From Gammaproteobacteria bacterium (GTDB lineage: Bacteria > Pseudomonadota > Gammaproteobacteria > Poriferisulfidales > Oxydemutatoraceae): a stretch of 64,000 nucleotides of DNA. The stretch is from contig JAPPQC010000047.1 of NCBI GenBank assembly GCA_028817225.1, positions 9,284 to 73,283 on the forward strand, given 5' to 3'. This document shows, one piece after another, positions 13,399 through 47,562 of the stretch (position 1 is its first letter; each line of letters opens with the position of its first letter). The notes beneath the pieces are model-generated. The model was not told where the DNA came from. It made no database searches and worked only from the letters and a program-made list of their open reading frames with translations. A program made the translations under genes and the position numbers.

Positions 13399-13557
13399 CC
13401 GGCGCCGGGCTTGTTCCGCCGGTTTCAGATTAAAGCCGCCGGGCCGTTTCTCCGGCGCCGGTGCAAACGATTGCGGCGCTGACCGGCGCCGGGCTTATTC
13501 CACCAGTTTCAGATTGGGGCCGCCGGGGCGTTTCTTCGGCGCCGGCGCCGAGGATTG
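13390..13557. repeat. Imperfect tandem duplication (2 x ~84 bp, ~85% identity) of the sspB 3' end
   Basis: Copy 2 (13474-13557) encodes the real sspB C-terminus (...PGGPNLKLVE*). Copy 1 (13390-13473) is a degenerate duplicate in the intergenic spacer. It begins exactly at the convergent redoxin stop codon. Confidence 0.75.
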
Positions 13558-13926: not shown

Positions 13927-13935
13927 GGCCGCAGT

Positions 13936-23005: not shown

Positions 23006-23602
23006 TCAGGAGGCGGTGTTCAGGCGCCTGAGCAGCGAATCAAAGCCGTCTTCGCGAATTTCGCGGTCAAAACTCTGCCTGAACTGCTTGACCAGGCTGA
23101 GGCCGTCAATCACCAGATCGAAGACCTGCCATCTGCCGTTCCTGTCGTGCATCATGTAGTTGATGCTGAGAGGCGGCTCGTTGGCCTCGAAGGTGACATC
23201 GCTCGCGACCAGCACATACTTGCCGCCGCCCGCCTTCTGCGGCGCGCGGAAACGAATCCGGTCCACCTCGGTCAGCAGTGTCAGCGATTTGCCGTAACTG
23301 CGTATCAGCAGCGACTCCATCGCCGCGGTGAAATTCCGGCGCTGCCCGTCGCCGAGGCCCTTCCAGTGCCTGCCGAGCACCAGGCGGCTCAGGGTCGCGG
23401 TGTCCACCGCCGGCAGAATGCGCTGGCGAATCAGCCGGAACAGCGCGTCGTCGTTGTTCTGATACAGCGCCTTGTTGGCCTTGACCTCGGTCAGCAATTC
23501 CTGCACCAGGCCGTCCACGGCCTTCTTCGCCGCGCCGGTGTCGGCGCAAACCGGCGACGCCAGCGCGAGGCCAGCCATCAGCGCCAGCGCGCCCCGCGTC
23601 AT
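23006..23602 (-). CDS. mlaC: Phospholipid-binding periplasmic protein MlaC (Ttg2D family)
   Basis: A signal peptide followed by an MlaC fold. It sits 3 bp upstream of murA and 3 bp downstream of the giant gene. No mlaFEDB genes are in the window. Confidence 0.8.
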   Translation of the reverse strand: MTRGALALMAGLALASPVCADTGAAKKAVDGLVQELLTEVKANKALYQNNDDALFRLIRQRILPAVDTATLSRLVLGRHWKGLGDGQRRNFTAAMESLLIRSYGKSLTLLTEVDRIRFRAPQKAGGGKYVLVASDVTFEANEPPLSINYMMHDRNGRWQVFDLVIDGLSLVKQFRQSFDREIREDGFDSLLRRLNTAS

Positions 23603-26600: not shown

Positions 26601-29600
26601 CCGCCACCCGCACATCGGTCGCGGCGCCGTAGCGCACCAGTTCCATGCCGGACACCGTCGCGAACGGCCCGGCGGGCGGCACCGCCGCGCCGTTGCGGCT
26701 GCGCACGCCGAAGTTGTTCATGAAAGTCGCGGCGCTTGCCGTCGTCAGCACATCCTCAATCGTTACTTCCAGCAACAGTTCGGTGGGGCTGCCCGGCACC
26801 GCCGTCGCCTGCGCGGCGGCGCCGACCTGCGGCGCGTTGGCATCGCCGGCGGGCTGCACCTCGCTCCAGACCGGGCGCGCCGGCGCATAGTTTGCAAAAG
26901 ACCGGCCTTCGTCGTCGCTGATTCGCGCCGCCGCCTGCGTCTGCTCAAGGCGCACGATGTAATGCGCCAGCGTCGTCGTCGTGATGTTGATTGCGGACAG
27001 GCCGGTGACGGTCAATTCCCATGTGTCGGAATACACGACGCTGCCCGATGTCATCGCAACCGCGGGCGCGTCGGTGACCGGCGCCGCCGTGAACGACGAA
27101 TAGGCCGTCGCCGATGTCGCCAGGTTCATCACGCCGGCGTCGCTCGTCAGGCTGTCGGCCAGCGCGGCGAGGTCGGCGCCCTCGGCCACCTCCGGCGCCG
27201 AGAACAGCGTGAAACTGTCGGTACTGACGCCGGCCACCGCCTCGGTGAAGCGAAGCCGCCAGGCCATCATCAGCGTGCCGCCGCCGTCGGGCGCAACCCG
27301 GTGGCGGCGGAAGTCGGGCACCGGCGCGCCCGGCGCGCGCAGCCGCAACTGCGGCGGCGCGTTCTCGGGGAAGGCCAGTTGCCGCCGGTATTCGGCGCTG
27401 TTGGCGTCCGCCACCGCATCGGCGACGGCGCCTGCGGCGAGCGTGACGGTGATGGCCTCGACGCCGTCCGGCGAACCGCCGCTGACCGGCGCCGCGCCGC
27501 TGGTTTGCAGCGGAATGTGCAAATTGGCGCCGTCGGCCACGGCATCGCCGGCAAGCGCCGCACCGGTTATCCATTCGCTGGAGGTGGTGACGGCAATCTG
27601 CGCGCGCGCCGCGAAGTCGTTCAGCGTGACCGCCTCGTTGAACACCAGCGTCGCGGTCGCCCGGTTGCCCGCGGGAAAGTCCATCAAGGCGCCCGTCAGC
27701 ACCGGCGCGACGGTGTCCGCCACCTCGTGCGCATCACCGGTGAACGGCAGGCCCTCGATGCCCTGCCCCGGCGCGTCCCTTGCGGCGATGGTCGCGCTCT
27801 CATCCACTTGCAGGCGGTAGAAAACGGGCGCGCCAATCCGCTGGACCAGGCTGCCGGTCGAGACGATGTATTCGCGCGAGACAATGCTGTCGGCGTTGAC
27901 GACCGTGCCGCCCAGCGCCGTTTCATCGGCGCAGGAATCGGCGGCGGCGTCCACCGCGCACACGACAAAGTCGCCGCTGCCGACGCCGCTGACCGGCTCG
28001 GTGAAAACAACCGTCCAGCCGGCGCTGGAGGTGGTGTCCGGGTTTTCCTGTGCATCGCCGCGCGCCGCCGCCGAAACCACCCGCGGCGCCGCCGTGTCGT
28101 GCAGCGTGAAGAAGTCGGTGCGCGCCGCCACGCTGTTGCCGTCAAAACCGCCGGCGGGGATGTCCTCGATGGCGCCTTCGGGGAAGGCGATTTGCAGGAA
28201 ATTCGTCGCCGTGACCGGCACCGCGCCGTCCAGCGGCGCAGGCCCGCTGATTTCAAGCGCAAGGCGCAATTCCCCCGCCTCCAGCACCGCGCCGGTTACG
28301 CGGATGCCGCTGATGGCGTCGTTCAGGACCGCGGTGCGGTCGTAGCCCGCCGGGTCGCCGGCAAGCGACGCCGCCGACGCCGTCGAGAGTCCGGCGTTGA
28401 ACAGCGCAACCAGGGCGTCGGTTGTCGCCGCCGCGCGCCGCACATCCTCGTCAAAGCGGTAGATGATGGTCGTGTTGCCGGTCGAGATGGAGGGCGGCGC
28501 GGTCAGCCGCGGCGGCGTCTCGTCGCGCAGCGTCAGCACGCCGCGCGCGCCGTCGGGGCCGGTTTGCACGACGCCGCCGAGGGCGCGGGTTTTCGGCGGC
28601 ACTTCGCGGATGACATTGGTGTCGGTCGTCGCCGGCAGGTAATACAACGGCGCGCCCGACGGCTCGGCCAGTTCAATGGTGTAACCGGCGGTCGAGGCGG
28701 CGGCGGTGAACTCGAAACCCGCGCCGGCGAAGGTGTCGGCGCCGCGGCGGGATTGGGCGTCGCTGACGCTCGCGGTGCTCGAGGCCAGCGCGTAAATGTC
28801 AAAACTGTTGGCCGCCACGCCGGTGACCGGCTCAGTGAAAGTGACCGTCCATGTAACCCGTCTCGTCGTGCCGCCGGCGACAAGGCCGGCTTGCGCCTCG
28901 ACGGCGGCGATGACCGGCGCGGCGTTGTCGTTGAACCCGAAGTCCGCCGTCTCGCCGCTTGCCAGCAGGTTGCCGGTCGCATCCTGCCAGCGTATGCCGG
29001 CGTCGCCGGTGTAGGTCAGCAGCGTGATGCGCGCGCGCTCGCGCCCTTCGGGCGAGGCGCCGTTCAGCGGCGGCGGCCCCTGTGTCGCGACGGCGAACCG
29101 CACCTCGGTGCTGCCCCCCGCCGGAATCGTCGGAAACGATGTCAATGCCGCCGTCGTAATCCAGCCGCCCGGACTGTCGGTGATTTCAATGTCGGCAATG
29201 CTGCCCGTCGCCGCGTCAAACTGCACCGGCTCGCTGAAGGTCAGCGTCAGGTTTGCGTTGGCGTCGTCGAGGCGGGCGCTCATCAGCGTCGGCGCAACAA
29301 GGTCTTCCGAGGTGTGGAAGGCGCCGCGGCGGTTGTGCCCGCCCATCGTCGCGCGCCGGTCTTCGGCGGGGAACAGCGCGTTGCCGGCGTCGTCGGCGAT
29401 GGCGGCGGCGATCAATTCAACGGTGTAGCCGAAGCCCGCCGGCGGGTACTGCGACGGCGTCAGCGGCCCGAGCGCAATCGCGTAGGTCGCGCTGGCGGCG
29501 CCGGCGCTTTGCCGCGTCACCATCACATTCACATCGTTCGCGAGTTGGCCGCCGGTGTTTTCGCCTGCGAGGCTCACCTCCAGCACGCGGATGCCGCTGC

Positions 29601-32600
29601 TTTGCAGGTTCACGCGTTCGCTGAAGCGGGCGCGGAAATTCATCACATAGCCGCCGGAAGCCGATGTCCGGTTGACCGCCGTGAACTCGAGCAGCCCCGG
29701 CCTCAGGTCGTCGCCGAACGCCAGCGCCCGCGACGGCGTCTGGTGCGTCTCCGCCGGGTGGTCTTCGGCGTCCGCGACATTGTCGGTGATGTCGCCGACG
29801 AAGTTCCGCGCCAGCCGGATTTGCAGCCGCTCGGCGCCGTTTGCCGAGCGCGCCGCGCCTTCCTGAACGGCGCCGCCGAGCGTGCGCACAACCAGCGTCG
29901 CCGTCGTGTTCGAGTCGGTCGCCAGCGAAACCACCTCGACGCCGGTGATGCCGTCCGGGTTCAGCACCGACAGCACAAAGTCGGCGGTGGAGACGGCGGC
30001 GGCGTTGAAGTCGGGGCTGAAGGCGAGGCGCACGGTGTCGTTGTTGTCAAACGACGCCGCCGTCATCTCCGGCGCGGCGTTGTCGTGCGCCGGCAGTCGC
30101 GCCAGATGGTAGCCGGCGGCGACGCTCGCGCCGTCGCCCGCCGTCAGGCTTTGCCCGGCGGCGACGGCGACGGCGCCGCCGGCGGAATCGCCCGACAGCG
30201 TCAGTTCAATGACGCGCGGCGACGCCAGCGCGGCGGCGGTGATGGAAACGCCGCCGCCGGTGTGCGCGAAAACCGCCGGCGAAAGCGGCCCTTGCAGCGG
30301 CTCGCTCATCACCAAGTCAACGCGCCGCCCGTCGCCGTACAGATTCACCTCCACCGCCCACGGGTCGCCGTTGGTGGCGATGTCGTCGAAGCGGTTGCCG
30401 GCGTACGCCAGATGGCCGCGGTCGCGCCCGCCCGCCACCAGCGTTCGCAGGCCGCTCCAGCCGACTGCGGCGATGCCGACATCGGTGCGGGTGGCGGTGT
30501 CGGCGATGTCGCACTCCACACGGAACAGGTCGCGGTAGTCCGTCGTCAGTTCGCCGAAGCGCGTGCGGTTGGCGGCGGCGTCGCCGGCGTCGTAGGCATC
30601 GGCGCCTGTGGCGGTGAAAGTCCACGCCGTCGTGCCGGTCGCCGCCGTCATCGCCGTTTGCAGATAGAACCCGTCTTGACGGGTCGCGGTCAGGCCGGCC
30701 CTCGCGGCGCGGCAGTTGTTCAGGACAGCGGCGTCGTGGGCGATGCCGAATGTCGTCTGCGACAAAAAGGCGCTGCGCGCGGCGCCGTCCGGCGGCGTCA
30801 GCCGCGCCTGTGCGTCAAACGAGAAGGTCGCGCCGTTGACGACCGGGTTGGCGAGTTGATAGGCAATTCGGCTGTCGTCGCCGCAATCATCGCAGGCCAG
30901 CATCTCCGGGGTGTCGGCGTAGAGACTGTTGCCGACAACAGTGCTGAACCCGACGGGGGTCTCGTCGTCTATCGTCACCGTGGCGGTGGGCCGCGCCGAC
31001 GCGACCCGCGACCCCGAACTGCCGTCAAACTGAAGGCTCAGTGTGAACACCTCGTCCGGTTCCGACACCAAATCGTCCAGAATCTCCAGATTCAGGCAGC
31101 GCCTCTGCTCCGAGGCGGAACTCGTGAAATCGGCGAGGCGGCCGTCGCCGGTCAGCGTGTAATCCGTGTCGCGCGCGGCGGTGACGCTGTTCACGGCGAC
31201 GCTCGCCGTCACCGTCCGGTTGAGACTGTAGCCGGGAACGACGACGCAAATCGTCGTCGTCACGCCTTCGGCCAGCGTGTATTCCGCCTGCTCAAAATCA
31301 ACCCGGATGTCGTCGTCGTCCGCGATGATGATTGTTCTGGTTGTTCTATGAATCTCCAAGCCGCTGGTAAATCCCGCGACCACCTGTCCGCTGTCGTAAC
31401 TCAGTTGAAACGCCTTGTCTTCTTCCGCGACATCGTCGTCAATCAGAACCAGCGGAGGATGGACAACTCTCGAATCAAATGTGTTGCTCCGTGCTCCCCG
31501 CCTGATGGATGTGGATGTGGTCAGGCGATAGTCCTGACCCTCCACGGCGTCAAACATGGCGCCGGGCGCGGCGCCCGTCTCCCAGGGAAAATCCACATCC
31601 CGCACCGAGGCCGATGACAGATGCGGAGCCTGATCCGGCCTCAAGGTTCCCTGCGATTCGGATACCCGGATGGGGGTTGTTCTGGCAGTGTTGCGGTCTA
31701 TCCTCCAGCGATTTTCCCGAATAAACTCGTTGTCCAATACCGCCAGCACTGTCTCCTGCACCGGGGAAAAGTTGGCGGCAATTCTCGGATCCTGCTGCTC
31801 ACCCAACTCCCTGGCTTCAGCATGCGTAAGGATGCGAACATCGAACAACTCTTCATCTTCAAGCCCAACACTGTCATCAACGATGTCAAAGTTACTGACC
31901 TCAATGGTAGAGTTCAATCCGAAGGAGCGTGTAAATACGCGCCCAAGACTCGGAAGACTCGGAACAACGGTATCGCGCAGGATTTCCTGCAAAGATCCCC
32001 GAAAAACAATCCGCAAAGCCGGCTGGCCGTCAAATCGGTTTGCGCCGACATTCGTTATCTGCACGAAAAACCCCGGGTCGGATCTCGTATCTTCAACAAA
32101 ATCATGCCGGTCTCTCAAGAAGCCAAACACCAAACGGTCATCTTCCTGAATGGTGATGCCGGTGGTGCTCGCCTCGCCCGCCGTGACCAGCCCGCTGGCG
32201 CTGGTTCCGCCAATCAGCGCGTCATCAATGACAAGGCCCAGCGTTCTGGTGGTCTCGTACCCGTTCACATGCGGTATCGCGATTTTCGCCGGCGCGCCCG
32301 TCTCGCCGGCGGGCAGTGTTACCCGCGTGTTCGCCGTGCCGGCGGGCAGCGCCGTATCGCCGGCGGCGTTGAAGAAGCGGTAATCCCCGGTGCCGGCGAC
32401 AACGCCCATGCTCGTGGGGATGCTCAGGCTGAGCGGCGCAAGCCTCACCGTCACATCCTCCCCGGCCGTGCCGGGCGGCTCAAACCGCAGCCGCGGGTTG
32501 GCGGTGTTGGTGGCGCCGGGCGCCGCCTCGCTGATCAGATAACCGGTGCGCTCAAACACCACCCGCCGCGGGTCGCTTTGGGCGATGGTCGCGCTCTGCG

Positions 32601-35600
32601 ATGAGTTCAGCATCCGCGGCACTCCCGCGCCGCGGGCCGCCTCGTCCAGATGCATCACAAAGACCTCGGCGCGCTCGGTCACCTCGTCATCCACGGCGGT
32701 TACGCTGACCATCGCCGTCGTGGCGCCGGGTTCCATGATGAAAAAGCCGCTGTCCGGCTCGTAGTCGGCGGCGTCGGCGTTCGCCGTCGCGGCGGACGCA
32801 TCGGCGGCGATGCGCCACGGAATCGCGGCGGTGTTCTGGCGCGTGCTGCCGCCCAATGTCACCGTGAACGAGACGCTGAGACTCTCGGATGTCGCGCCGC
32901 CGCCGCTCAAGGCGACGGTGACTTCATCGTCGTCCAATATGGACGCGACCGGCGCCTGCCGGACGCCGACCGTGGTTTCATCAAACACCAGCGCGAAGGT
33001 TTCCCGGCCCTCGGCCAGCGCGTCGTCGGCGACGGCGACGGCGATGCTGCGGCTCGTGCCGGCGGCGTCGCCCGCGGCAAAGGCCACGCTGCCTGTTTGC
33101 GCGGTGATGAAGTCGTCGGCGTTCGCCGCGACCGCGCCGCGCCCCTCGATGGCCCAGTTCAGCGTCAGCCCGCCGCCGGCGATGTCGGCGCCGGACTCGA
33201 AAACAACGGAATACATCGCGGTGGTGCCCTCGGCAATGCTGTCCGGCCCGGCGACGGCAAACACGCGGTCTCTGGAGTCGCTCGCGGCGATGGTCGCCGT
33301 CGCCGTCATCGCCGCGGGCACTTCGCCGGCGGCGCCGGTTGCGCGCTCCAGTTCAAACACAAAGGTTTCCGCCCCCTCCGTCACAAAGTCCTTGAAGACG
33401 GCAACCTCGGCGGTCATGCGGCTGTCGCCGGGCGCGAAGGTCAGCGTGCCGGCGGGAAAATTCGCGGCGGCGGCGCGGTCGCCGAAGTCGCCGGCTTCGG
33501 CGGTGTTCATCGCGCCGGTCTGCGTGGTTTGCCAGGCCATCGTCAGGTCGTTGTCGCGCGCGCCGCCGGCCAACTCGACGGTGAAGACCGCGTCGTCGCC
33601 TTCGCTGACCGGCTGCGACGGCGGGGTGAGCGTTGCCACGACCGGATCGTTGTCGGCAATGACAACGGCGACGCCCGCCGTTGACGCGAGGCGAAGCGTG
33701 ACGCCGCCGACACGGGCGGTCACCAGTTCCAGAAACACCTCAAAGGCTTCGTCGGCTTCGTTGCGGTTGTCGTCGTGAACCGGAATCTCCAGGTTGACGC
33801 CGGTGTCGGTGCCTGCGGCCAGCGTCAGGACGCCCTCGGGGAACTCGCTGTCCAGGCCGCCGCCGAAGTCGGCGGGCCGCGCCCCGGCAGCGGTGCCTGT
33901 GACCCGGTAACGCACCTGCGCGTCGCCGTTGATTGCGCCGGACAGGCGCACGCTGAAGGCCGCGTTCGCACCCTCGGCCACCGGCGCCGCGGGGCCGGAC
34001 AGGCTGACGACGCCGACGGCGTCGGCGGCGATGGCCGCCTCACGCGACGGGTTGGCGGGCAGCGTCGGCTGCTCGGTGCTTTCGGCGCTTGCGCCGGTCA
34101 GCGTCAGCGTGAAGGTTTCGCGCTCCTCGGTCGTGAGGTCGGCGGCGAGCGGTATCGCAATCGTCGCGCTGGAATTCGTGCCCTCGGCGATGACCACGCC
34201 GCCGGAAGGAAACACGCCGCCGGCGAAGTCCGCCGCCGCCGCCGGATTGTCGCCGCTGCCGGCGACAACATATTGAACCGTGGTGGCGCTGCTGGCGCCC
34301 GGTATGCGCACGGTGAAGGTCGCGCTCGCGCCCTCGGCCACCGGCGCCGCGGGGCCTGCGTCCAGAATCACGCGGCGCGCGGGCGGGTCGTTGATGACGA
34401 CATCAACGCCGACCCGGTTCGGGTTTCTGGCGCTGACGCCGGAAGCCGGCAGCGGGAAAACGCCGCCGTTGCCCTGAAACGCGACATTCACCGACACCGC
34501 GAGCGTCTCGGTCGCCGCCTCGGCGACGGAATCGGCGATGAAGCGGATGCGGACAACGGCGCTGTCGCCGCCCGCGGGAATCGTCAAATTCCGGTTGCTT
34601 GCGCCGTGCCCGCCGAAACCCGCGGGCGCGAGCACCTGGTAGTCGCCGCCGTCCACCGTGGTGGGGCTGGTCGCGGAGTCAATGATCCAGGTGGCGACGA
34701 GGTCTTGCGTCAGCGGATAGCCGCCCTGCAATCGCAGCGTGTAGTCGGCCACATCGCCCTCCGCCACCGCGGAAGGGCCGGTGAAGGTGAAAGTGAAATC
34801 GTCGTTGCTCTCGGCGATGGTCGCCGACGCCGTGTCCTGCGGCGGCGGGCCGGTCGCGGTCATGCCGCCCTCGGCGCCGGTCAGCAACACGCTGAAAGTC
34901 TCGGCGCCTTCGTTGCCGGCGTCGTTGAACACCGGAAGGCGTATTTGGGCGGTGCTGTTGACGCCCGGCGTGATGGTCAGCATGCGGCTGGCCGGGAATG
35001 CCGCGAGCGGCGCGGTGTTGCCGGCGTTGCCGAAATCGTTCGCCGACGCCGGCGACGACACGCCCGGCAACACCGACCAGGTTACGACGGTGTTCTGCGT
35101 TGTTTGCCCGCGCGCAGTAACGGTGAAAACGGCCTCGCCGCCCTCGGCGACTTCCGCCGACGGCCCGGCGATGATAACGCCGTCGGCGGCGATGGCGGCG
35201 ACCAGCAGCGAATTGGCCGCCGGCGCCACCGCGCTGTCGCTTTCGGCGCCGGTCAGCAAAATCCGGAAGGTTTCCTCGCCTTCGGGCAGGCTGTCGTCGT
35301 CCCGAATGGACAGTTCCATCATCGCGGACGGATTGGCGCCCGCAGGGATGACGACTTCGCCGGACGGGAATTCACCGCCGGCGAAGTCCGCCGCAGACGC
35401 CGGGTTGGCGCCGAAACCGGAAACAACATAAGTGGCCGTGGTCGTGTCGGCGATGGTGCCGACAACGCGCACGGTGAAAGTCGCGGTGGCGCCCTCGGCC
35501 ACCGCCGCGGCGGGGCCTGCGGACAGCAGCACGCGGCCATCAGACGGGTCGGTCAGCGTGGTCTGCACGCTGCGCGCGGCGCCGATGATGGGAAAGACGC

Positions 35601-36402
35601 CGTCGTTGCCCCGGAACGGGGCGCCGCCGACGGACACCTGGATGGATTCCGCCGCCGTCTCGGTGACATCGTCGTCGGCGATGCGAACCAGCAGCGTGCC
35701 GGCGGTGGTGCCGGCGGCGATGGCGAGGTAGCCGGTGGCCGCCGCCGGGGCGCCGCCGAAGGACGTGGCGCCGGGGGTCAGGATTTGCAGGTCGGCGGGC
35801 GCGGCGGCGCCGCCGACGGCGACTTCGTACGGCACTTGCAGCGTGCTGACCGGCGCGTCGCCGCTGATGAGGAAGTCGTATTCGGCGGTGTCGCCCTCGA
35901 CCGCGGTCGCCGGGCCTTGCAGCGACAGGATGAAGTCGGCGCTGGCGCTGATTTCGACGACGGCGAAACGGCTGCCGGACAGCGCGGTGGCGCCGCCTTC
36001 GGCGCCGGTCAGGCGGACGGCGAAGAGTTCAACCGCCTCGTTGCGCCCGTCGCGCAACACCGGAATGGTGATGTCGGCGGTGGCATTCGTGCCAGCCTCG
36101 ACGCGCACTTCCTGCGCCGACAAAAACCTTTCCAGCGGCGTTGTCGTGCCGGGAGCGCCGAGGTCCTGCGGCTGCGCCGAACCGGAGATGCCGACGCCGG
36201 TGATGCTGTAAGTGGCCGTCGTCGCCATCGCCGTCGTGCCGTGCACCGTTATCGTGAAGACGGCGTTGCCGCCCTCGCTGACAGTCTGGTTCGCCGGAGC
36301 AATCGAGACCTCCGGCGCCTGCGCCGTCGCCGCGCCCGGGTACAAGACCGCGCCGACGACGAGAGACAGGGTCGCAAAAGCGAATGAATGGAATCTGTTC
36401 AC
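23599..36402 (-). CDS. Giant (4267 aa) secreted repeat protein / putative surface adhesin
   Basis: A single uninterrupted ORF with a GTG start.
- Signal peptide MNRFHSFAFATLSLVVGAVLYPGAATAQA.
- Roughly 15 Calx-beta-like modules of ~100 aa (recurring AxEGxxAxFTV...DF...ETFxxxL).
- A central region of different beta-rich modules.
- TSP3-like acidic calcium-binding repeats (DGDGIPDAAEIEYGGNPL, DGDRDGIADDSDLYEDD).
- A terminal tail GGGGGVGAGGGSFGVAGLLMLMLGALCMFLRRRFPNAARGAGGKA (Gly-rich motif, TM helix, Arg cluster).
GC and codon usage match the host genome. Confidence 0.85.
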   Translation of the reverse strand: MNRFHSFAFATLSLVVGAVLYPGAATAQAPEVSIAPANQTVSEGGNAVFTITVHGTTAMATTATYSITGVGISGSAQPQDLGAPGTTTPLERFLSAQEVRVEAGTNATADITIPVLRDGRNEAVELFAVRLTGAEGGATALSGSRFAVVEISASADFILSLQGPATAVEGDTAEYDFLISGDAPVSTLQVPYEVAVGGAAAPADLQILTPGATSFGGAPAAATGYLAIAAGTTAGTLLVRIADDDVTETAAESIQVSVGGAPFRGNDGVFPIIGAARSVQTTLTDPSDGRVLLSAGPAAAVAEGATATFTVRVVGTIADTTTATYVVSGFGANPASAADFAGGEFPSGEVVIPAGANPSAMMELSIRDDDSLPEGEETFRILLTGAESDSAVAPAANSLLVAAIAADGVIIAGPSAEVAEGGEAVFTVTARGQTTQNTVVTWSVLPGVSSPASANDFGNAGNTAPLAAFPASRMLTITPGVNSTAQIRLPVFNDAGNEGAETFSVLLTGAEGGMTATGPPPQDTASATIAESNDDFTFTFTGPSAVAEGDVADYTLRLQGGYPLTQDLVATWIIDSATSPTTVDGGDYQVLAPAGFGGHGASNRNLTIPAGGDSAVVRIRFIADSVAEAATETLAVSVNVAFQGNGGVFPLPASGVSARNPNRVGVDVVINDPPARRVILDAGPAAPVAEGASATFTVRIPGASSATTVQYVVAGSGDNPAAAADFAGGVFPSGGVVIAEGTNSSATIAIPLAADLTTEERETFTLTLTGASAESTEQPTLPANPSREAAIAADAVGVVSLSGPAAPVAEGANAAFSVRLSGAINGDAQVRYRVTGTAAGARPADFGGGLDSEFPEGVLTLAAGTDTGVNLEIPVHDDNRNEADEAFEVFLELVTARVGGVTLRLASTAGVAVVIADNDPVVATLTPPSQPVSEGDDAVFTVELAGGARDNDLTMAWQTTQTGAMNTAEAGDFGDRAAAANFPAGTLTFAPGDSRMTAEVAVFKDFVTEGAETFVFELERATGAAGEVPAAMTATATIAASDSRDRVFAVAGPDSIAEGTTAMYSVVFESGADIAGGGLTLNWAIEGRGAVAANADDFITAQTGSVAFAAGDAAGTSRSIAVAVADDALAEGRETFALVFDETTVGVRQAPVASILDDDEVTVALSGGGATSESLSVSFTVTLGGSTRQNTAAIPWRIAADASAATANADAADYEPDSGFFIMEPGATTAMVSVTAVDDEVTERAEVFVMHLDEAARGAGVPRMLNSSQSATIAQSDPRRVVFERTGYLISEAAPGATNTANPRLRFEPPGTAGEDVTVRLAPLSLSIPTSMGVVAGTGDYRFFNAAGDTALPAGTANTRVTLPAGETGAPAKIAIPHVNGYETTRTLGLVIDDALIGGTSASGLVTAGEASTTGITIQEDDRLVFGFLRDRHDFVEDTRSDPGFFVQITNVGANRFDGQPALRIVFRGSLQEILRDTVVPSLPSLGRVFTRSFGLNSTIEVSNFDIVDDSVGLEDEELFDVRILTHAEARELGEQQDPRIAANFSPVQETVLAVLDNEFIRENRWRIDRNTARTTPIRVSESQGTLRPDQAPHLSSASVRDVDFPWETGAAPGAMFDAVEGQDYRLTTSTSIRRGARSNTFDSRVVHPPLVLIDDDVAEEDKAFQLSYDSGQVVAGFTSGLEIHRTTRTIIIADDDDIRVDFEQAEYTLAEGVTTTICVVVPGYSLNRTVTASVAVNSVTAARDTDYTLTGDGRLADFTSSASEQRRCLNLEILDDLVSEPDEVFTLSLQFDGSSGSRVASARPTATVTIDDETPVGFSTVVGNSLYADTPEMLACDDCGDDSRIAYQLANPVVNGATFSFDAQARLTPPDGAARSAFLSQTTFGIAHDAAVLNNCRAARAGLTATRQDGFYLQTAMTAATGTTAWTFTATGADAYDAGDAAANRTRFGELTTDYRDLFRVECDIADTATRTDVGIAAVGWSGLRTLVAGGRDRGHLAYAGNRFDDIATNGDPWAVEVNLYGDGRRVDLVMSEPLQGPLSPAVFAHTGGGVSITAAALASPRVIELTLSGDSAGGAVAVAAGQSLTAGDGASVAAGYHLARLPAHDNAAPEMTAASFDNNDTVRLAFSPDFNAAAVSTADFVLSVLNPDGITGVEVVSLATDSNTTATLVVRTLGGAVQEGAARSANGAERLQIRLARNFVGDITDNVADAEDHPAETHQTPSRALAFGDDLRPGLLEFTAVNRTSASGGYVMNFRARFSERVNLQSSGIRVLEVSLAGENTGGQLANDVNVMVTRQSAGAASATYAIALGPLTPSQYPPAGFGYTVELIAAAIADDAGNALFPAEDRRATMGGHNRRGAFHTSEDLVAPTLMSARLDDANANLTLTFSEPVQFDAATGSIADIEITDSPGGWITTAALTSFPTIPAGGSTEVRFAVATQGPPPLNGASPEGRERARITLLTYTGDAGIRWQDATGNLLASGETADFGFNDNAAPVIAAVEAQAGLVAGGTTRRVTWTVTFTEPVTGVAANSFDIYALASSTASVSDAQSRRGADTFAGAGFEFTAAASTAGYTIELAEPSGAPLYYLPATTDTNVIREVPPKTRALGGVVQTGPDGARGVLTLRDETPPRLTAPPSISTGNTTIIYRFDEDVRRAAATTDALVALFNAGLSTASAASLAGDPAGYDRTAVLNDAISGIRVTGAVLEAGELRLALEISGPAPLDGAVPVTATNFLQIAFPEGAIEDIPAGGFDGNSVAARTDFFTLHDTAAPRVVSAAARGDAQENPDTTSSAGWTVVFTEPVSGVGSGDFVVCAVDAAADSCADETALGGTVVNADSIVSREYIVSTGSLVQRIGAPVFYRLQVDESATIAARDAPGQGIEGLPFTGDAHEVADTVAPVLTGALMDFPAGNRATATLVFNEAVTLNDFAARAQIAVTTSSEWITGAALAGDAVADGANLHIPLQTSGAAPVSGGSPDGVEAITVTLAAGAVADAVADANSAEYRRQLAFPENAPPQLRLRAPGAPVPDFRRHRVAPDGGGTLMMAWRLRFTEAVAGVSTDSFTLFSAPEVAEGADLAALADSLTSDAGVMNLATSATAYSSFTAAPVTDAPAVAMTSGSVVYSDTWELTVTGLSAINITTTTLAHYIVRLEQTQAAARISDDEGRSFANYAPARPVWSEVQPAGDANAPQVGAAAQATAVPGSPTELLLEVTIEDVLTTASAATFMNNFGVRSRNGAAVPPAGPFATVSGMELVRYGAATDVRVAVGEDETTLTFRARLTGTLDNGESAVGGERFRFTIPGGRLTDIFGNTQNDDMTFTATVPESGAPEVAEFSVLSSVERAPNTGVFDLRYLLAFTEPVTISSAALALYSAPGRNQPPLTRAGAVPIGNVLDGALAAGIPPSSVASSMSQARVVVAYNGVQRPERMVRGYAIFLRDTGATESMAPMTRTLEDCPYYDTDETMTGCLSASADVSDVSPPRLHGAGYAGSRLWLRFDEPARALAAGAELADGDALEGFEVLPGHQMGQMTSASVAVERAAYRVSAQPGAARITGIELQLDTVIQGTETAVWVRYTPPAAGAGIYDNADLRGLNAAPNRIARVLELRVAEGLTDDGDGDGIPDAAEIEYGGNPLAPLSDAERAALPQVVLGRGVSDIARIAYSGIRVLGADAHLGIGTTGTVAARLTAWYLSDTFGYTPAPGEPGYGCTGRFPANYRAPVARGGCAVVDFADIRAGVEHRIGWLAADAAGYWLPQATTSTLSEQRIVRVPELNMNSERLFFLAADADSATVAVEANHDGPEAASDLTLSFTTGEMQTGRKTFSFTVAKSAVTASRTWGIAGLSGAGASLWRAGTDTAALTANSYSLGLATQTTVVRLGDDSLPPTVGSPVLFSGAGRGDGDVRSVLSAGVFAVQLPVENPHPSLAPVVTATGAGAAALSALSAVRSGADIEVALTVAAVTTPTSVTLRISAPGRGATATVTVSWPIVPSAHALAAVAASDGDRDGIADDSDLYEDDSGLPVAVLDTDGSLAGADSWHHIRPVLPGQSVRLGAATLRRAADREDLMPGAAPSYDTWAASFFDVEGFEVVYDFSVYDVDYSSGMAQNSTATTVAGGRAGVIIPLPESLYADANLALFKYREDGASEPFAALPGGNDYGFAPLANGACPDDTGAADSPYRDSGGLRRPKSGGDACLVVYVADGGEYDEDEALPNGVVHDPLGLRAGGGGGVGAGGGSFGVAGLLMLMLGALCMFLRRRFPNAARGAGGKA

Positions 36403-36455
36403 ACCTGGTGCATGTGCGGGAACAAAGGCCGTGCATGCCCCTGTCCAGGCGCGGC

Positions 36456-36490
36456 ATTATACCCGAACCGCCGTTCACCGGCCAATTCGC
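36456..36490 (-). promoter_or_regulatory. Candidate promoter for the giant gene (TATAAT about 50 nt upstream of the GTG)
   Basis: A minus-strand GGTATAATG (plus-strand cattatacc at about 36455-36463) lies between the tRNA-His 3' end and the giant ORF. Confidence 0.3.
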
Positions 36491-36510: not shown

Positions 36511-36587
36511 TGGGGTGAGCGATGGGACTCGAACCCACGACATCAGGAGCCACAATCCTGTGCTCTACCAACTGAGCTACGCCCACC
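36511..36587 (-). tRNA. tRNA-His (GTG)
   Basis: Reverse complement GGTGGGCGTAGCTCAGTTGGTAGAGCACAGGATTGTGGCTCCTGATGTCGTGGGTTCGAGTCCCATCGCTCACCCCA. It has the G-1 extra base, a 7-bp acceptor stem, an anticodon loop ttGTGgc, a T-loop GGTTCGAGTCC and a CCA end. Confidence 0.9.
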
Positions 36588-36589
36588 TC

Positions 36590-36666
36590 TGGCGCGCCTG
36601 GCAGGACTCGAACCTGCTACCTCCGGTTTAGAAGACCGATGCTCTTTCCAGATGAGCTACAGGCGC
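36590..36666 (-). tRNA. tRNA-Arg (TCT)
   Basis: Reverse complement GCGCCTGTAGCTCATCTGGAAAGAGCATCGGTCTTCTAAACCGGAGGTAGCAGGTTCGAGTCCTGCCAGGCGCGCCA, with anticodon loop ctTCTaa. Confidence 0.9.
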
Positions 36667-36668
36667 CG

Positions 36669-36745
36669 TGGTCGGGGCAAGAGGATTTGAACCTCCGACC
36701 TCCTGCTCCCAAAGCAGGTGCGCTCCCAGACTGCGCCATGCCCCG
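36669..36745 (-). tRNA. tRNA-Pro (TGG)
   Basis: Reverse complement CGGGGCATGGCGCAGTCTGGGAGCGCACCTGCTTTGGGAGCAGGAGGTCGGAGGTTCAAATCCTCTTGCCCCGACCA, with anticodon loop ttTGGga. Confidence 0.9.
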
Positions 36746-40209: not shown

Positions 40210-41705
<1,496 letters not shown>

Positions 41706-41706
<1 letters not shown>

Positions 41707-42272
41707 CAGATGAAGTCCTCCGGGTCGGCGCCGCGCCGCAGGCCGGGGTTCAGCATGAAGTAGTCCGAGTACGGTTCCGGCAGCACCGACACGACGAAGC
41801 CCGCGCCTTCAAGAAACGGCGGCAGAAACAGCGCGCCGCGCCACCACGGCGAGGACGGCACCTCGGTCAGGCTGAACAGCAGCACCAGCAAAACGACGAT
41901 GGCGCTGCCGCGCACCAGGCCGAAGACGCCGCCGAAAAAGCGGTTGGCGCCGCTGAGCGCGCCGGCGTTGACGGCGCGGTTGATGCGGCGCGCGATGAAG
42001 CGCCCGACAACCAGCACCAGCAGCGCGATGGCGACAAAGGACGCCGCCCGCGCAAGGTCTTCCGCGCCCGCCGTCAGGCCGGCGACGGCCAGTTCGCGCC
42101 CGCGCCATTCCTCCGGCAGCCAGCGCAGCGGGTAGTCGGCAAAACGAAACGCGGCGAAAAACGCCAGCAACAGCGTCGCCAGCGACGCGACCTCGCGGAC
42201 AAAACCCTTGTAAATGCCCAGCACCATCGAGACAAAAACAATGACAAAGATGAAAATATCGAGATACGCCAT
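41706..42272 (-). CDS. cvpA: Colicin V production protein CvpA
   Basis: [28 protein letters not shown]..., four TM helices. It is the immediate upstream partner of purF, as in E. coli. Confidence 0.9.
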
Positions 42273-42344: not shown

Positions 42345-42911
42345 TCAACCGCCGTGGCCGTCGTCGTCGTCACCCTGCGAGCGGACCAGCGCCGTGATGC
42401 CGTGTTTCTTTTTCAGGTCGCGGACGATTTGCTCCGCCGCGCCGCGGCTTTTGTGCGGGCCGATTCTGACGAAATAAACCGGCGCGCCCCGCCGGTCCTG
42501 CGCTTCCTTGAAGAAAACCGGATCAAACCCCGCCTTGCTGAGCGTGGCGCGCAAACTGTCGGCGTTCTCCCGCACCGAAAAAACGCCGGCCTGCACAACC
42601 CACAGCGCCCGCGCCGCGCCGTCGGGCGCCCGCGCCGCGCCGTCGCGGACAACCGGCGCCGCCGCCCGCAGCGGCCCTTTCATCGGCGCCCGCCGCACCG
42701 CCGTGCCGGTCGTGCCGGCGGCCTCCCCCTGCGCCCGCTCAAGCGCCGGAAAATGCTGCCCGAAAACAATCGCCGGTTTTTCCGGCGCCTCAATCCTGAC
42801 CTGCGAAAACTCGCGGTAGCCCTCGCCGTCAAACAACGCCGGCAGCACAATGACCGCAAGCGCCACGACAATCACGGCCCCCGCAAGCCTCTCCTTCATC
42901 GGCTGCTCCAT
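42345..42911 (-). CDS. dedD: SPOR-domain cell-division protein (DedD-like)
   Basis: An N-terminal TM helix, a Pro/Ala-rich linker and a C-terminal SPOR domain (WVVQAGVFSVRENADSLRATLSKAGFD...YFVRIGPHKSR). Confidence 0.8.
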   Translation of the reverse strand: MEQPMKERLAGAVIVVALAVIVLPALFDGEGYREFSQVRIEAPEKPAIVFGQHFPALERAQGEAAGTTGTAVRRAPMKGPLRAAAPVVRDGAARAPDGAARALWVVQAGVFSVRENADSLRATLSKAGFDPVFFKEAQDRRGAPVYFVRIGPHKSRGAAEQIVRDLKKKHGITALVRSQGDDDDGHGG

Positions 42912-42951: not shown

Positions 42952-43953
42952 TCAAAGGTGGCCGTCGCGTTTCAGGACGCGCACCAGGAAATTGCCGGAG
43001 GCCTCGACCAGATTGAAGGGAGGCCCGCTGTCCGGCTTCTCACCCGCCATGATCAGGTAGCGGGTAATCGGCGTCGGCGCGCCGTACTCTTTGGTGCCGA
43101 TTCTGATGTCGGCGGACGCGAAGATGCGGTACTCCGTCTGCGCCAGCAGGTAGTTGTCCGGCGGCCCTTCGGACGGCGACAACAGCCGCCTCAATTCCGG
43201 AAACCGGCGGTGCGTGAAAACCGTGAAATGTTTCGCCAGATGCTCGTGATAATTCCCGGCATGGTGGTTCGTCATGAAGTACAACGGCATGCCGCGCGGA
43301 ATCAGCCTCTTCAAATCCTTGACGAAGCAGTTGGTGAGCCAGCCGCACACGGCCCCGAAACCGGGGAATTTCCTCCGGCTGAGCACTCCTTCCAGCCGGA
43401 TAATCCTGAAATGCACGGCGGCATACTCTTCGCCGAGGGCGCGCAGCACCGGGCCTGCCAGCGACTCCACCAGCGCGGAAGGCTTGAACCCCACTCCGAT
43501 GCCGGCAATGCGCGCACGATCATAGTAGTGATTCAGCGGAATGGTGGCGTGGGTCATCGCATCGGCGGGCAGCGTTTTGGAGATGACGCGGTAGTCGCGG
43601 TTCTGCCCGTCGGAGACCGGGGATACACCGGGCAGGCGCAGGCATTCCGTGTCCGGGATTCCGAGCGAGCCAAAATCATCCCGCGACACGACGGACAGCT
43701 GGCAATCCCTGCTGTCGCCGTTTCTGTACTGTATTCGCAACAGGGAATTCTCCAGATCCGTGTAGCGGCTCCAGCCGGGCGGCGGAAGATGTCCGCGGTT
43801 GTGCCGGGCCTCCAGGTTGGGAGGCGGCACAACCAGCGTGCGCCCCAGGCAGGCCGCCTCCCTGATTTGCGTTCCCAGGTTGGAAAAGTTGTGTATCAGG
43901 CCTCCGGTCGAGCCGACGGATGCATACACAAGATATCCCGGCGCATCGGTCAT
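42952..43953 (-). CDS. POFUT1-like (GDP-fucose protein O-fucosyltransferase / GT65-GT23 superfamily) glycosyltransferase
   Basis: The N-terminus GYLVYASVGSTGGLIHNFSNLGTQIREAACLGRTLVVPPP closely mirrors the POFUT1 motif [38 protein letters not shown]. It is 333 aa. GC is lower (~58-60%) than its neighbours. Its ATG overlaps the folC TGA (ATGA). The Arg-rich ORF-track extension into folC is rejected. Confidence 0.6.
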   Translation of the reverse strand: MTDAPGYLVYASVGSTGGLIHNFSNLGTQIREAACLGRTLVVPPPNLEARHNRGHLPPPGWSRYTDLENSLLRIQYRNGDSRDCQLSVVSRDDFGSLGIPDTECLRLPGVSPVSDGQNRDYRVISKTLPADAMTHATIPLNHYYDRARIAGIGVGFKPSALVESLAGPVLRALGEEYAAVHFRIIRLEGVLSRRKFPGFGAVCGWLTNCFVKDLKRLIPRGMPLYFMTNHHAGNYHEHLAKHFTVFTHRRFPELRRLLSPSEGPPDNYLLAQTEYRIFASADIRIGTKEYGAPTPITRYLIMAGEKPDSGPPFNLVEASGNFLVRVLKRDGHL

Positions 43954-45290
43954 CGCGCCGCCGGCGCCGTCCCGGCCAGGGCCTCGGCCACGGTCAGCAT
44001 TGAGCCGAACACCAGCAGGCGTTCGCCGCCGCCTGTGTGCGACGCCGCCTCGCGGTACGCCTGCGCGACCGACGGGAAATGCCGCACCGTGCCGGCGCCG
44101 GCGTGGCGGCGCACAATCTCGCACAGTTGCGCGAGCGGCAGCGCGTCCGACGACCCGGCCTCGCCCAGGTACCAGCAGTCCACCAGCGGCGCGACGATCC
44201 GGACGACGCCCTCGACATCCTTGCTCGACAGCATCGAGAACACCGCGTGCAAACGCCCCGTGCCGTCCAGCGCGCGCAGGTTGCCGGCCATGACCTCGGC
44301 GCCGTGCGGGTTGTGCGCGATGTCGAAGATGTGCAGGCGTTCGCCGTCCGGCGCCGCGACGCGCCGTATCTGGAAGCGCCCGTGCAGTTGCACATTGGCG
44401 AGTCCGCGGCGCACCGCGTCCGGCGCGACCTGGAAATGGCCGCGCAAGTGCGCGAGCGCGGCCAGCGCGCAGCACGCATTCTGCAACTGAATCTCGCCGT
44501 AGAGCGCCGGCGGCGGCAGATTCTCAAGGCCGCCGCCGCGCGCGACGAAGTCCCAGCCGTGGTCGTGTTTGCGGTAGTTGAAGTCAACGCCGAAACGCTC
44601 GACCGCGACGCCGCGCCGCGTCAACTGCTCGATGGCGCCGCGCGGCGGCTGCGGGTCGCCGTAGATGCACGGCCTGCCGGGGCGGGCGATGCCGGCCTTC
44701 TCGGCGGCGATGGACTCGCGGTCGCTGCCGAGCCATTCGGTGTGGTCAATGCCGATGCCGGTGATGACGGCGACATCGGCGTCCACGATGTTGACCGCAT
44801 CGAGCCGCCCGCCGAGGCCGGTCTCCAGAATGACGACATCCGGCGAACAGCGGTGAAAATGCCACAGCGCCGCCAGCGTGCCGACCTCGAAGAAACTCAG
44901 GCTGATGTCGCCGCGCTGCCGCTCGATGACCTCAAACGCCTCGCACAGCGCCGCGTCGCCGGCGCACTCCCCGCCAACGCGGATGCGCTCGTTGTAGCGG
45001 TGAATGTGCGGCGAGGTGTAACTCGCGGTCGCGCAGCCGTGCTCGCGCAGAATGGATTCAAGCAGCGCCACCGTCGAACCCTTGCCGTTGGTGCCGGCCA
45101 CCGTGACGACCGGCCACGGCGCCGGCAGCAGCCCGATGCGCAGCGCGACCTCGCGCACGCGCTCAAGCCCGAGTTCTATCTCCGCCGGGTGGGCGCGCTT
45201 GTGCCGCCTGAGCCAGCACCGCAGGTCGTCCGCGGCGCCGGCGCGGTTGATGGCCGTCCCGTTCACGGTCACTCGCGCAGGCGCGCGCAA
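43950..45290 (-). CDS. folC: Dihydrofolate synthase / folylpolyglutamate synthase
   Basis: Contains ...LGLERVREVALRIGLLPAPWPVVTVAGTNGKGST..., 446 aa. Confidence 0.93.
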   Translation of the reverse strand: MRAPARVTVNGTAINRAGAADDLRCWLRRHKRAHPAEIELGLERVREVALRIGLLPAPWPVVTVAGTNGKGSTVALLESILREHGCATASYTSPHIHRYNERIRVGGECAGDAALCEAFEVIERQRGDISLSFFEVGTLAALWHFHRCSPDVVILETGLGGRLDAVNIVDADVAVITGIGIDHTEWLGSDRESIAAEKAGIARPGRPCIYGDPQPPRGAIEQLTRRGVAVERFGVDFNYRKHDHGWDFVARGGGLENLPPPALYGEIQLQNACCALAALAHLRGHFQVAPDAVRRGLANVQLHGRFQIRRVAAPDGERLHIFDIAHNPHGAEVMAGNLRALDGTGRLHAVFSMLSSKDVEGVVRIVAPLVDCWYLGEAGSSDALPLAQLCEIVRRHAGAGTVRHFPSVAQAYREAASHTGGGERLLVFGSMLTVAEALAGTAPAAR

Positions 45291-45399
45291 GACCGCCTGA
45301 TTTCAGATGTCGTTTTCATGAAAAACCGGATAAACTCGGTATTCTATCAAACCGCAACCGCATCAAATCATCCCGCAAACCGATGACTCCCCGCGCGAC

Positions 45400-46602
45400 A
45401 TGAGATTCCTGGCCGCCGCCGTCACGCCGGTAACCTGGGCCGACCTGGCGCGCGGCGCGCGCGCCGCCGCCGCGCGCGACGGCGTCGCCGAATTCGAGCG
45501 CGCGCTCGGCGCCTGGTTCGGCGGCGCGCACGCCTGCACATTCGGCTCGCTGATGCGTTCGGTCAAGGCGTGCATGCTGGCGGTGCGCGGAACTTCGACG
45601 CGCCGCCGGGTCGTGCTGTCGCGCTACTCCTGCCCCAGTTTCGCGCACGGCATTCTCGCCGCGGGCCTTGAGATCGAGTATTGCGACACCGACCCGTGCA
45701 CGCTCGCCTTCGACATGGAATGCTTCCGGCGCATTGACCTGTCGCAGGTGTGCGCCGTGGTCTGCGCCAACCTCTTCGGCCTCGCCTACCCGGTGCGCGA
45801 CATCGCCGCCGCGTGCAAGGCCGGCGGCGCGGCGCTGGTCGAGGGCGTGGACTACGGCATCGGCACCGAATCCGGCGGCGCGCGCCTCGGCACGCTCGGC
45901 GACTTTGCGATACTCAACTTCCAGGAAGGCAAGGCGCTGCCCATCGGCGGCGGCGCGGTCGTCACCCGCCACGGCGACGCCATGGAGCGGGTGCCGGGGT
46001 TTTCGCGGCGGCGCCCGCGCGGGCGCCGGATGCTGACGCTGGCGGCGTTCAGAATCCTGACCAATCCGCACGCCTACGGCCTTTTCATCAAAGCCGCGCA
46101 AATCGGAAAAGTCAACCTGCGGCGGCGCTTCTCGATGGAGGACACCATCCGCAAGACACGCGCCGAATACGACTACGCGCCGGAAGGCGGCGCGCTCGAT
46201 TCGGTCTCCGACTTTCAGGCCGGCGTCGGCATGGCGCTGCTGGAGAAACTGGAACACCACATCGAGGTGCGGCGGCGCAACGCCGGCATCATCGAGGAGA
46301 CGCTCGGCGGCGCGCGCGGCGTTGAACTGATCGAGCGCGACCCCGGCCTCGGCAAGACGCACTACATCCGCTACCCGTGCCTCGTCGCCGCCGGCGCGCG
46401 CGACGGCCTGATCGCGCACCTGCACCGGCGCCGCATCGAGGCCAGCTGGATGTATGTGGACCAGGGCATGGAGGTGGACGCCGCGCGCTTCCCCGGCGCG
46501 CGGCGCATCCGCGACTGCCTGGTGACGCTGCCGTGCCACCCGCATGTGACCGCCGACGACGCGCGGCGCATCGCGCGAACCACCGCCGAATTTCTCGCCT
46601 GA
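45400..46602 (+). CDS. DegT/DnrJ/EryC1/StrS-family PLP-dependent (sugar) aminotransferase
   Basis: Family pattern across the protein, including the PLP lysine region LGDFAILNFQEGKALPIGGGAVVT. It is on the opposite strand to the flanking accD and folC. The 110-bp spacer before it is AT-rich and divergent from folC. Confidence 0.75.
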   Translation: MRFLAAAVTPVTWADLARGARAAAARDGVAEFERALGAWFGGAHACTFGSLMRSVKACMLAVRGTSTRRRVVLSRYSCPSFAHGILAAGLEIEYCDTDPCTLAFDMECFRRIDLSQVCAVVCANLFGLAYPVRDIAAACKAGGAALVEGVDYGIGTESGGARLGTLGDFAILNFQEGKALPIGGGAVVTRHGDAMERVPGFSRRRPRGRRMLTLAAFRILTNPHAYGLFIKAAQIGKVNLRRRFSMEDTIRKTRAEYDYAPEGGALDSVSDFQAGVGMALLEKLEHHIEVRRRNAGIIEETLGGARGVELIERDPGLGKTHYIRYPCLVAAGARDGLIAHLHRRRIEASWMYVDQGMEVDAARFPGARRIRDCLVTLPCHPHVTADDARRIARTTAEFLA

Positions 46603-46686
46603 CGATGTGTCTGAATACGGCGGCCTGTTGCGGAGACTCCGCCTCGCCCGCCGCCGCAAGGTGATGCGCCGCTTCGGGCCGCGCGG

Positions 46687-47558
<872 letters not shown>

Positions 47559-47562
<4 letters not shown>

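Follow-up and report, generated by a model that had tools for sequence, protein, structure and literature searches.

How do genes for sugar modification come to lie inside a universal housekeeping operon of a reduced symbiont genome, and what might they do there? We addressed this question in a 64,000-nucleotide stretch of a genome labelled Gammaproteobacteria bacterium (assembly GCA_028817225.1, contig JAPPQC010000047.1, positions 9,284 to 73,283; hereafter the window, numbered from its first letter). As the initial annotation had proposed, two extra genes interrupt the accD-folC-dedD-cvpA-purF block. The first, which we call X (42952-43953, minus strand), lies between folC and dedD and encodes a 333-amino acid protein, predicted to be soluble and to belong to the GT-B fucosyltransferase superfamily of glycosyltransferases, with a fold like that of the protein O-fucosyltransferases (POFUTs). 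The second (45400-46602, plus strand) lies on the opposite strand between folC and accD and encodes a 400-amino acid aminotransferase of the DegT/DnrJ/EryC1 type, which uses pyridoxal 5'-phosphate (PLP). We lean towards a role for X in decorating a surface glycan, with strain-level variation. To our knowledge, hardly any bacterial relative of the eukaryotic protein O-fucosyltransferases has been characterised. The locus gives a clear case of accessory sugar genes inserted in a housekeeping operon, and the divergence of X between strains provides a tangible starting point for asking how the glycans of sponge symbionts come to vary.

We are highly confident that X adopts the fucosyltransferase-type GT-B fold, with two Rossmann domains, as predicted by an AlphaFold2 model. 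Built on a 105-sequence alignment, this model reached a predicted local distance difference test score (pLDDT) of 91.8 and a predicted template modelling score of 0.91; a model built on an eight-sequence alignment was not usable (pLDDT 38). Structural comparison scores were highest for human POFUT2 (16.5), Caenorhabditis elegans POFUT2 (15.8) and C. elegans POFUT1 (15.5), followed by AtFUT1 (12.5), FUT8 (11.6) and NodZ (11.3). The next fold, a GT9 heptosyltransferase-type protein, scored 7.9. The first 50 Foldseek matches in the PDB were all POFUT1, AtFUT1, NodZ or FUT8, and the best matches among viral structure models were giant-virus O-fucosyltransferase-family proteins and cyanophage fucosyltransferases. 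Judged by the model, the nearest solved relatives of X are the POFUTs. The initial annotation had described X as POFUT1-like. The fucosyltransferase likeness holds, as the Foldseek matches and the O-FucT matches of 18 of 105 wider-family members show, but X itself matches no hidden Markov model (HMM) and POFUT1 is no closer to it than POFUT2.

The link from X to the fucosyltransferases is transitive, via a wider family, as well as structural. By sequence, X belongs to a very small subfamily of a likewise small family of ~300-amino acid proteins. Seven close relatives were found among 5.8 billion protein clusters (identity 99% to 52%). When the eight-sequence alignment was run as a profile exhaustively against 1.84 billion representatives, 234 proteins scored E ≤ 1e-3, only four of them at E ≤ 1e-30; a word-indexed search with the wide alignment, over a capped set of candidates, added at least one protein. 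In the 105-sequence alignment of the wider family, the N-terminal consensus reads RYLxY...aGlnHq..NL...EA..lGR.aVlPP...L..HNfG....W..YxDL. It is followed by YaAvHVRRGDrL, the classical fucosyltransferase motif I, by motif II (vYxlSDE) and by motif III (PDNYLLYxVEkxIxxxAxxRIxT). R183 is the sole residue invariant among all 105 members, and H181, D266, N267, L270, E274, A281, G18, R38, H51 and N52 are conserved in at least 90%. X retains H181, R183 and motif III (PDNYLLxxxE...A..RIxT), all of which are among the 83 invariant columns of its subfamily. On the minus strand of the window, the motif I remnant H181-F-R183 (family consensus HVRRGD) lies at 43405-43413 and motif III, P265-DNYLLAQTEYRIFASADIRIG-T287, in which D266, N267, L270, E274 and A281 are nearly invariant across the family, at 43093-43161. 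This delimits a compact family (~234 clusters), missed by HMM libraries, with a confident model and candidate catalytic residues.

The wider family connects to known enzymes by several routes. Pfam PF10250 (O-FucT) is matched by the 18 members at E ≤ 0.01 (best 5e-8), and the 11 best matches of the family profile in the PDB are all POFUT2, POFUT1 or FUT8, aligned on HxRRxD at marginal E values (0.015-0.95), with family motif I set against HLRRKD of POFUT2. X and its seven close relatives do not match PF10250 at E ≤ 1. Because most of the wider family is likewise unmatched, we treat it as sister to PF10250 and not as a set of its members. PF10250 also includes plant GT106 and other non-fucose transferases.

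With POFUT2 (CAZy GT68) and POFUT1 (GT65), X has in common the GT-B architecture and an N-terminal strand-loop-helix, GYLxY...G..(N/H)Q...RTLxxPP. R183 corresponds to the catalytic Arg240 of CePOFUT1. In that enzyme the central residue for catalysis is Arg240, in motif I, which binds the beta-phosphate and favours cleavage of the glycosidic bond; guanine is contacted by His238, and the acceptor is placed by Asn43 of the N-terminal G-N-Q loop, in which Gly42 also has a role (PMC3180450). The corresponding loop of X, G17-G-L-I-H-N22 (43888-43905, minus strand), carries the family's G-l-n-H-q motif, with G18 nearly invariant, and may be likened to the G-F-G-N-Q donor loop of POFUT1. When the N-terminal ~80 residues were compared by hhalign with human POFUT1 (E 7.7e-4, a lead only and not a test), H21 fell opposite the Asn of GNQ. 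On this tentative alignment X has His at the catalytic Asn position of POFUT1; HMMER aligns the family loop otherwise against POFUT2. The catalytic loop residue of POFUT2 is Glu54, the counterpart of Asn43 in POFUT1.

The differences from these enzymes are also considerable. Identity to POFUT1 and POFUT2 is 13-16%, and X is bacterial, cytoplasmic and smaller. It has no signal peptide and no hydrophobic segment that could serve as an anchor (maximum 19-residue Kyte-Doolittle mean 1.13), and because it lacks such a segment we expect it to be soluble and cytoplasmic. No EGF or TSR acceptor domain is found near X, and the genomic contexts of its relatives point to polysaccharides. The glycan-directed enzymes NodZ and FUT8 (GT23) and AtFUT1 (GT37) score below the POFUTs in structure and show no detectable sequence similarity to X, which has neither the Gly-Asp of motif I nor the acidic residues of motif II.

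The restricted distribution of both genes identifies them as an insertion. Scanning one genome for each GTDB species with folC gave 65 loci, in all of which nine genes were then looked for by tblastn. Both X and DegT are present in L005, a gammaproteobacterial metagenome-assembled genome whose folC is 94% identical to that of the window, and in L001/L006 and L002 (folC 88-89% identical). L006 is labelled Candidatus Porisulfidus sp. and has a 1.83-Mb chromosome. Neither gene is present in the nearest relative, L007 (Candidatus Oxydemutator sp.; folC 77%, accD 83%), where accD, folC and dedD abut, nor in more than 45 other gammaproteobacterial loci with contiguous trpA-accD-folC-(dedD)-cvpA-purF. 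This bears out the view of the initial annotation that the arrangement is an insertion and not an old and universal one. The simplest reading is that the stem lineage of a single narrow clade of sponge symbionts acquired both X and DegT. Porisulfidus is counted as a known symbiont of sponges (PMC12988363). The genomes that carry X are streamlined (1.5-1.8 Mb).

Composition adds to this picture. X has a GC content of 62.3% and a GC content at third codon positions (GC3) of 0.79, compared with 71.1% and 0.90 for folC, 70.8% and 0.90 for DegT, and 68.6% and 0.82 for dedD. Its GC is thus 6-9 points under that of neighbouring genes, close to the 8-10% deficit first claimed. The GC and GC3 of X, below those of its neighbours, suggest a foreign gene that has since partly ameliorated; contigs of ~57% GC carry the relatives that share 55% identity with it, and the GC3 of DegT is native-like. 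No X-like gene was found in plasmid and phage collections, so no transfer vector could be identified. In L001 (4729-5334), L002 and L006, a 201-amino acid MetW-like methyltransferase gene lies beside DegT. It is absent from the window (46603-46686) and from L005, and the DegT-accD gap in the window is 84 bp. Since the same pair recurs in distant organisms, the ancestral insert was probably DegT plus methyltransferase, the latter being lost subsequently in the window's lineage.

Both inserts are real coding genes, as shown by their low ratios of nonsynonymous to synonymous substitution rates (dN/dS) against orthologues. For X these are 0.22 against L005, 0.30 against L001, 0.29 against L002 and 0.27 against L003, and for DegT 0.29-0.36; genes neighbouring X range from 0.12 to 0.36. 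We rejected the possibility that X is a pseudogene or spurious open reading frame (ORF) on conservation and dN/dS. X is under purifying selection, though no gene of the block evolves faster (67% amino acid identity, against 73-93% for neighbouring genes). Translation from 43953 yields MTDAPGYLVY..., and this start is supported because homologues begin at the equivalent point (MSGYLVY). The start codon overlaps the folC stop codon (TGA) in an ATGA at 43950-43953 (minus strand), as had been noted, and L005, the closest relative, retains the overlap. The feature does not extend to L001 and L002, where folC stops at TAG and X starts 19 nucleotides further on.

One sample yielded both L001 and L002, long contigs that are ~99% identical over 17 kb outside X. 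Within X (L001 8001-8996, L002 8001-8966), identity falls to 74-92% in 300-nucleotide windows, with 30 nucleotides of in-frame indels. The dS of X is 0.36 and its dN 0.134, compared with a dS of 0.007-0.045 and a dN of 0.002-0.010 for folC, DegT, the methyltransferase gene, dedD, cvpA, purF and accD. Because dS itself is raised about ten-fold, recent positive selection does not simply account for the pattern. The divergence is also mosaic: alignment columns 81-160 are identical at 78 of 80 positions, and in columns 1-40 (21/33) and 201-240 (18/35) L001 and L002 are as distant from each other as either is from the window's allele. Assembly error was rejected as a cause, given that the ORF is unbroken, every indel preserves the frame and the limits of the divergence match those of the gene. 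The pattern points to old X alleles that have either been swapped by recombination or been kept on a background that was homogenised. A weaker trend in the same direction is seen between the window and L005 (X 87-91% identical, background 95-96%). Such mosaic divergence is typical of surface-antigen genes, and surface-sugar genes often differ between near-identical strains. The mosaic island of divergence in X is a new observation and likely marks X as a strain-level surface determinant. A second difference between L001 and L002, an indel of ~300 bp at L001 ~13500-14100, includes a 68-amino acid ORF present in L001 only.

What, then, might X act upon? Its relatives offer a guide. In a different type of genome, P0004 and P0005, homologues with 55% identity to X, are found downstream of mraZ, at the head of a co-directional cluster of X, Sulfotransfer_1, GT2, GT2-like and GT2 genes. 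P0016, a wider-family member with the canonical HVRRGD, is surrounded by GT2 genes, a Sulfotransfer_1 gene, an ABC-2/ABC exporter pair, Nucleotid_trans and ManC; this is a polysaccharide locus of the ABC-transporter type, with a gene for GDP-mannose synthesis among its members. Sulfotransfer_1-family genes stand beside X-family genes in two unrelated polysaccharide clusters (L003 11392-12273 and L085 1778-2647). Neither of these two sulfotransferases matched any NCBIfam model; their presence hints at sulfated glycans in X-family clusters.

The initial annotation had raised two protein acceptors, a giant adhesin and the SPOR-domain protein. Our check, which covered the proteins of the window, lends support to neither. 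The giant ORF (~4285 amino acids; 23599-36456, minus strand) matched only Calx-beta domains and is cysteine-poor (17 Cys). It contains no C-x4-[ST]-C site, no C-x2-3-[ST]-C-x2-G site and no EGF or TSR domain. DedD has no cysteine, no EGF or TSR domain and no acceptor consensus. X has no secretion signal, O-fucosylation sites are lacking in both the adhesin and DedD, and polysaccharide clusters are where relatives of X are found; we therefore consider a glycan, in the form of a lipid-linked precursor on the cytoplasmic side, the likelier acceptor.

We therefore propose the following model. It rests on what the data show (the fold and superfamily, the conserved Arg and His with motif III, purifying selection, the clade-restricted presence, the contexts of relatives and the mosaic alleles), whereas the donor sugar, the glycan acceptor, co-transcription with folC and any link between X and DegT are inferred. 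X would be a soluble, cytoplasmic, inverting GT-B glycosyltransferase of the superfamily that includes POFUT1/2, FUT8, NodZ and AtFUT1. The cleft formed by its two Rossmann-like domains would accommodate a nucleotide-activated 6-deoxyhexose, presumably GDP-fucose or a similar GDP-sugar. As acceptor, a cysteine-rich domain of an exported protein would be less likely. The gene would have been gained horizontally on the stem of the sponge-symbiont clade and placed between folC and dedD, where it may use the transcription of the housekeeping operon and, in the window, may also be translationally coupled to folC. DegT would have been inserted at the other side of folC in the same ancestor, originally with the small methyltransferase. 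Alleles of X may since have been kept diverse between co-occurring strains, as expected of a surface-glycan determinant.

Several findings weigh against this reading. X has no match at E ≤ 1 in Pfam or NCBIfam, and none in the PDB by sequence. The arginine expected of an HxRxGD motif is present, together with H181, but the Gly-Asp has been lost, so that the check suggested by the initial annotation succeeds in part: motif I of the subfamily reads HFRIIR or HFRRV, against HVRRGD in the family. The acidic pair of motif II is replaced (MTNH in X; MTNH, MTDD or MSDH in the subfamily, against SDE), and the Asn of the family's G-l-n-H loop is Ile in X (Ile, Leu, Met or Gln in the subfamily), with the adjacent His21 kept. 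With motifs I and II and the loop altered, the activity or the donor of X may differ from that of canonical enzymes; judging from these residues, X is a divergent variant, whose donor or mechanism may have changed. In the L002 allele the near-invariant H51-N52 is missing, as are eight further residues after motif I, so some X alleles may be decaying. The 64-kb window contains no sugar-nucleotide genes (GDP-fucose, GDP-mannose, dTDP-sugar) and no other glycosyltransferase, which makes X and DegT orphans at this locus. Contexts in the wider family are mixed, as L084 and L078 are not glycan clusters. Finally, the co-occurrence of X and DegT amounts to one evolutionary event, and elsewhere the two families are not neighbours. 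Eight further loci, mostly short, were retrieved with a 21-sequence sub-alignment of the family; their neighbours, such as rhodopsin and carotenoid genes or an epimerase fragment, are uninformative. The nearest outgroup proteins, P0008 and P0009, lie on contigs too short to give a gene context.

DegT itself can be placed with more precision in family than in substrate. It matches Pfam PF01041 (E 5e-32; 111.9 bits, cut-off 19.8) and falls far below every NCBIfam equivalog cut-off among PseC, DesI, LegC, WecE, ArnB and RfbH (best 60.4 bits, against 423.5 for PseC). Its best PDB matches are 4zwv and 4xau ('putative aminotransferase', E 3e-18), above ArnB-like enzymes and perosamine synthetases. 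It belongs to a distinct subfamily of ~100 homologous clusters with the signature LNFQEGKaLPiGGG (NFQEGKxxPxGGG). The PLP lysine, K178 (45931-45933), is invariant in 94 of 94 subfamily sequences. The presumed PLP-binding Asp (45844-45852) is at position 149 in 27 sequences (with Gly at 151) and at position 151 in 67 (with Gly at 149), which looks like a covarying shift of two residues. These residues are consistent with an active PLP enzyme. As in known DegT sugar aminotransferases (PseC, DesI, perosamine synthetase, AtmS13-like 4zwv), the PF01041 domain and the PLP Lys are kept; in contrast to them, the window's DegT has NFQEGK in place of the usual SFxxxK, and the Asp is shifted by two positions in most members.

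Homologues of DegT (43-57% identity; L072-L075) form part of a recurring module within exopolysaccharide clusters. The module comprises DegT, a MetW-like methyltransferase, a HAD or PHP phosphatase, an ATP-grasp enzyme and an XrtA-system polysaccharide deacetylase (TIGR03006, 294.7 bits, cut-off 276.2). The same methyltransferase stands beside the distant DegT-subfamily genes in L072-L074, and the clusters also hold GT4 and GT2 genes, RmlABCD-type genes and a sulfotransferase. DegT presumably makes an amino-deoxy sugar.

This raises the best-surviving alternative, a single two-step pathway in which DegT, with the methyltransferase where present, would convert a nucleoside diphosphate (NDP)-4-keto-6-deoxyhexose to an NDP-amino-dideoxyhexose (perosamine- or viosamine-like), and X would transfer this amino sugar in place of fucose. 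X and DegT have the same narrow distribution and flank folC, and the altered motifs I and II and donor loop of X are compatible with another donor. DegT homologues carry automatic names such as perosamine synthetase, and perosamine synthetases are among the PDB matches. GDP-perosamine and GDP-fucose share the common precursor GDP-4-keto-6-deoxymannose. However, the shared occurrence of X and DegT counts as only one phylogenetic event. No DegT lies near the X homologues of L003, L004 and L085, nor any X-family gene near the DegT homologues of L072-L075. The GC3 of X (0.79) looks foreign and that of DegT (0.90) native, suggesting different sources or ages. Between L001 and L002, X is hypervariable, whereas DegT and the methyltransferase are ~99% identical, and in L073 DegT adjoins dTDP-rhamnose genes and not GDP-sugar genes. 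We regard a joint pathway as a minority possibility, perhaps a one-in-several prospect.

We consider it rather unlikely that X is no longer a working transferase, being instead a decaying or re-purposed remnant in the folC operon (e.g., a sugar-nucleotide-binding or regulatory protein). Such a fate would agree with the subfamily's loss of the motif I Gly-Asp and the motif II acidic pair, with the rapid evolution of X relative to the block, with the loss of H51-N52 and the eight-residue deletion in L002, and with the lack of partner glycan genes in the window. Yet the ORF is intact in five of five full-length orthologues (dN/dS 0.22-0.37), the subfamily keeps its 83 invariant columns including H181, R183 and motif III, and X has been retained in genomes of only 1.5-1.8 Mb. 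Canonical POFUT1, going by its HLRIGSD stretch, presumably also departs from the RGD form of motif I, a lead and not a test.

An extension of the surface-glycan reading, bolder and in our judgment improbable, would have X define a family of bacterial glycosyltransferases that is new and stands as sister group to the POFUTs of eukaryotes. Balancing or frequency-dependent selection among sponge symbionts that live together would then maintain its allelic polymorphism. The cell surface, or else a protein, would receive from each allele its own fucose or amino-deoxyhexose epitope, perhaps resembling those of eukaryotes, and these epitopes would determine how the sponge host or phages recognise the cell. 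Lodged in the essential folC-dedD operon, X would be certain to be expressed in a streamlined genome.

Least probable, and to our minds very doubtful, is that X is a true protein O-fucosyltransferase acting on a bacterial or host protein (such as the Calx-beta adhesin or the SPOR protein) and mimicking eukaryotic O-fucosylation in a sponge symbiont: POFUT2 and POFUT1 are its closest solved structures, ahead of FUT8, NodZ and AtFUT1, its N-terminal GYLVY...GRTLVVPPP resembles POFUT1, and the 4285-amino acid adhesin lies 6.5 kb away, but X has no signal peptide or membrane anchor, the adhesin and DedD have no acceptor sites, and X relatives sit in polysaccharide clusters. POFUT1 and POFUT2 act on folded, disulfide-bonded (Cys-rich EGF/TSR) domains in the lumen of the endoplasmic reticulum.

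The genes around X and DegT are otherwise those of the conserved block. On the minus strand, purF (40210-41706) and cvpA (41706-42272) are followed by the SPOR-domain gene in the dedD position (42345-42911; Pfam SPOR E 1e-14), 40 bp downstream of X. folC (43950-45290; NCBIfam NF008101, 380 bits, cut-off 360) has an inserted gene on each side, and accD (46687-47562) has its stop codon 84 bp from that of DegT, with no methyltransferase gene between; beyond it lie trpA and then trpB. Between folC and DegT is a divergent spacer of 109 bp (45291-45399), in which the initial annotation had seen an AT-rich promoter region. The composition is as described (49.5% GC, in a genome of ~70% GC), but a consensus scan of the spacer found no sigma-70-like promoter. 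The promoter and terminator scan gave nothing above shuffled controls. Comparison of the window with L005 shows more indels in the SPOR/dedD gene than in any other of the block (79-83% nucleotide identity, 30-42 gap positions per 300 nucleotides); the indels are presumably located in its linker region.

The remainder of the window is housekeeping in character. It includes an ABC transporter, ispG, ahcY, metK, sspA, sspB and cytochrome bc1; hisG, hisD, aroA, DAHP synthase, MlaC, ppiB, a YkuD-type transpeptidase and alaS; and comEC, lolC/E-like genes and ccmEFGH. The giant ORF is kept in position in L001 (4295 amino acids) and L002 (4273 amino acids), and genes for tRNA-His, tRNA-Arg and tRNA-Pro lie directly upstream of it in the window, at 36511-36745.

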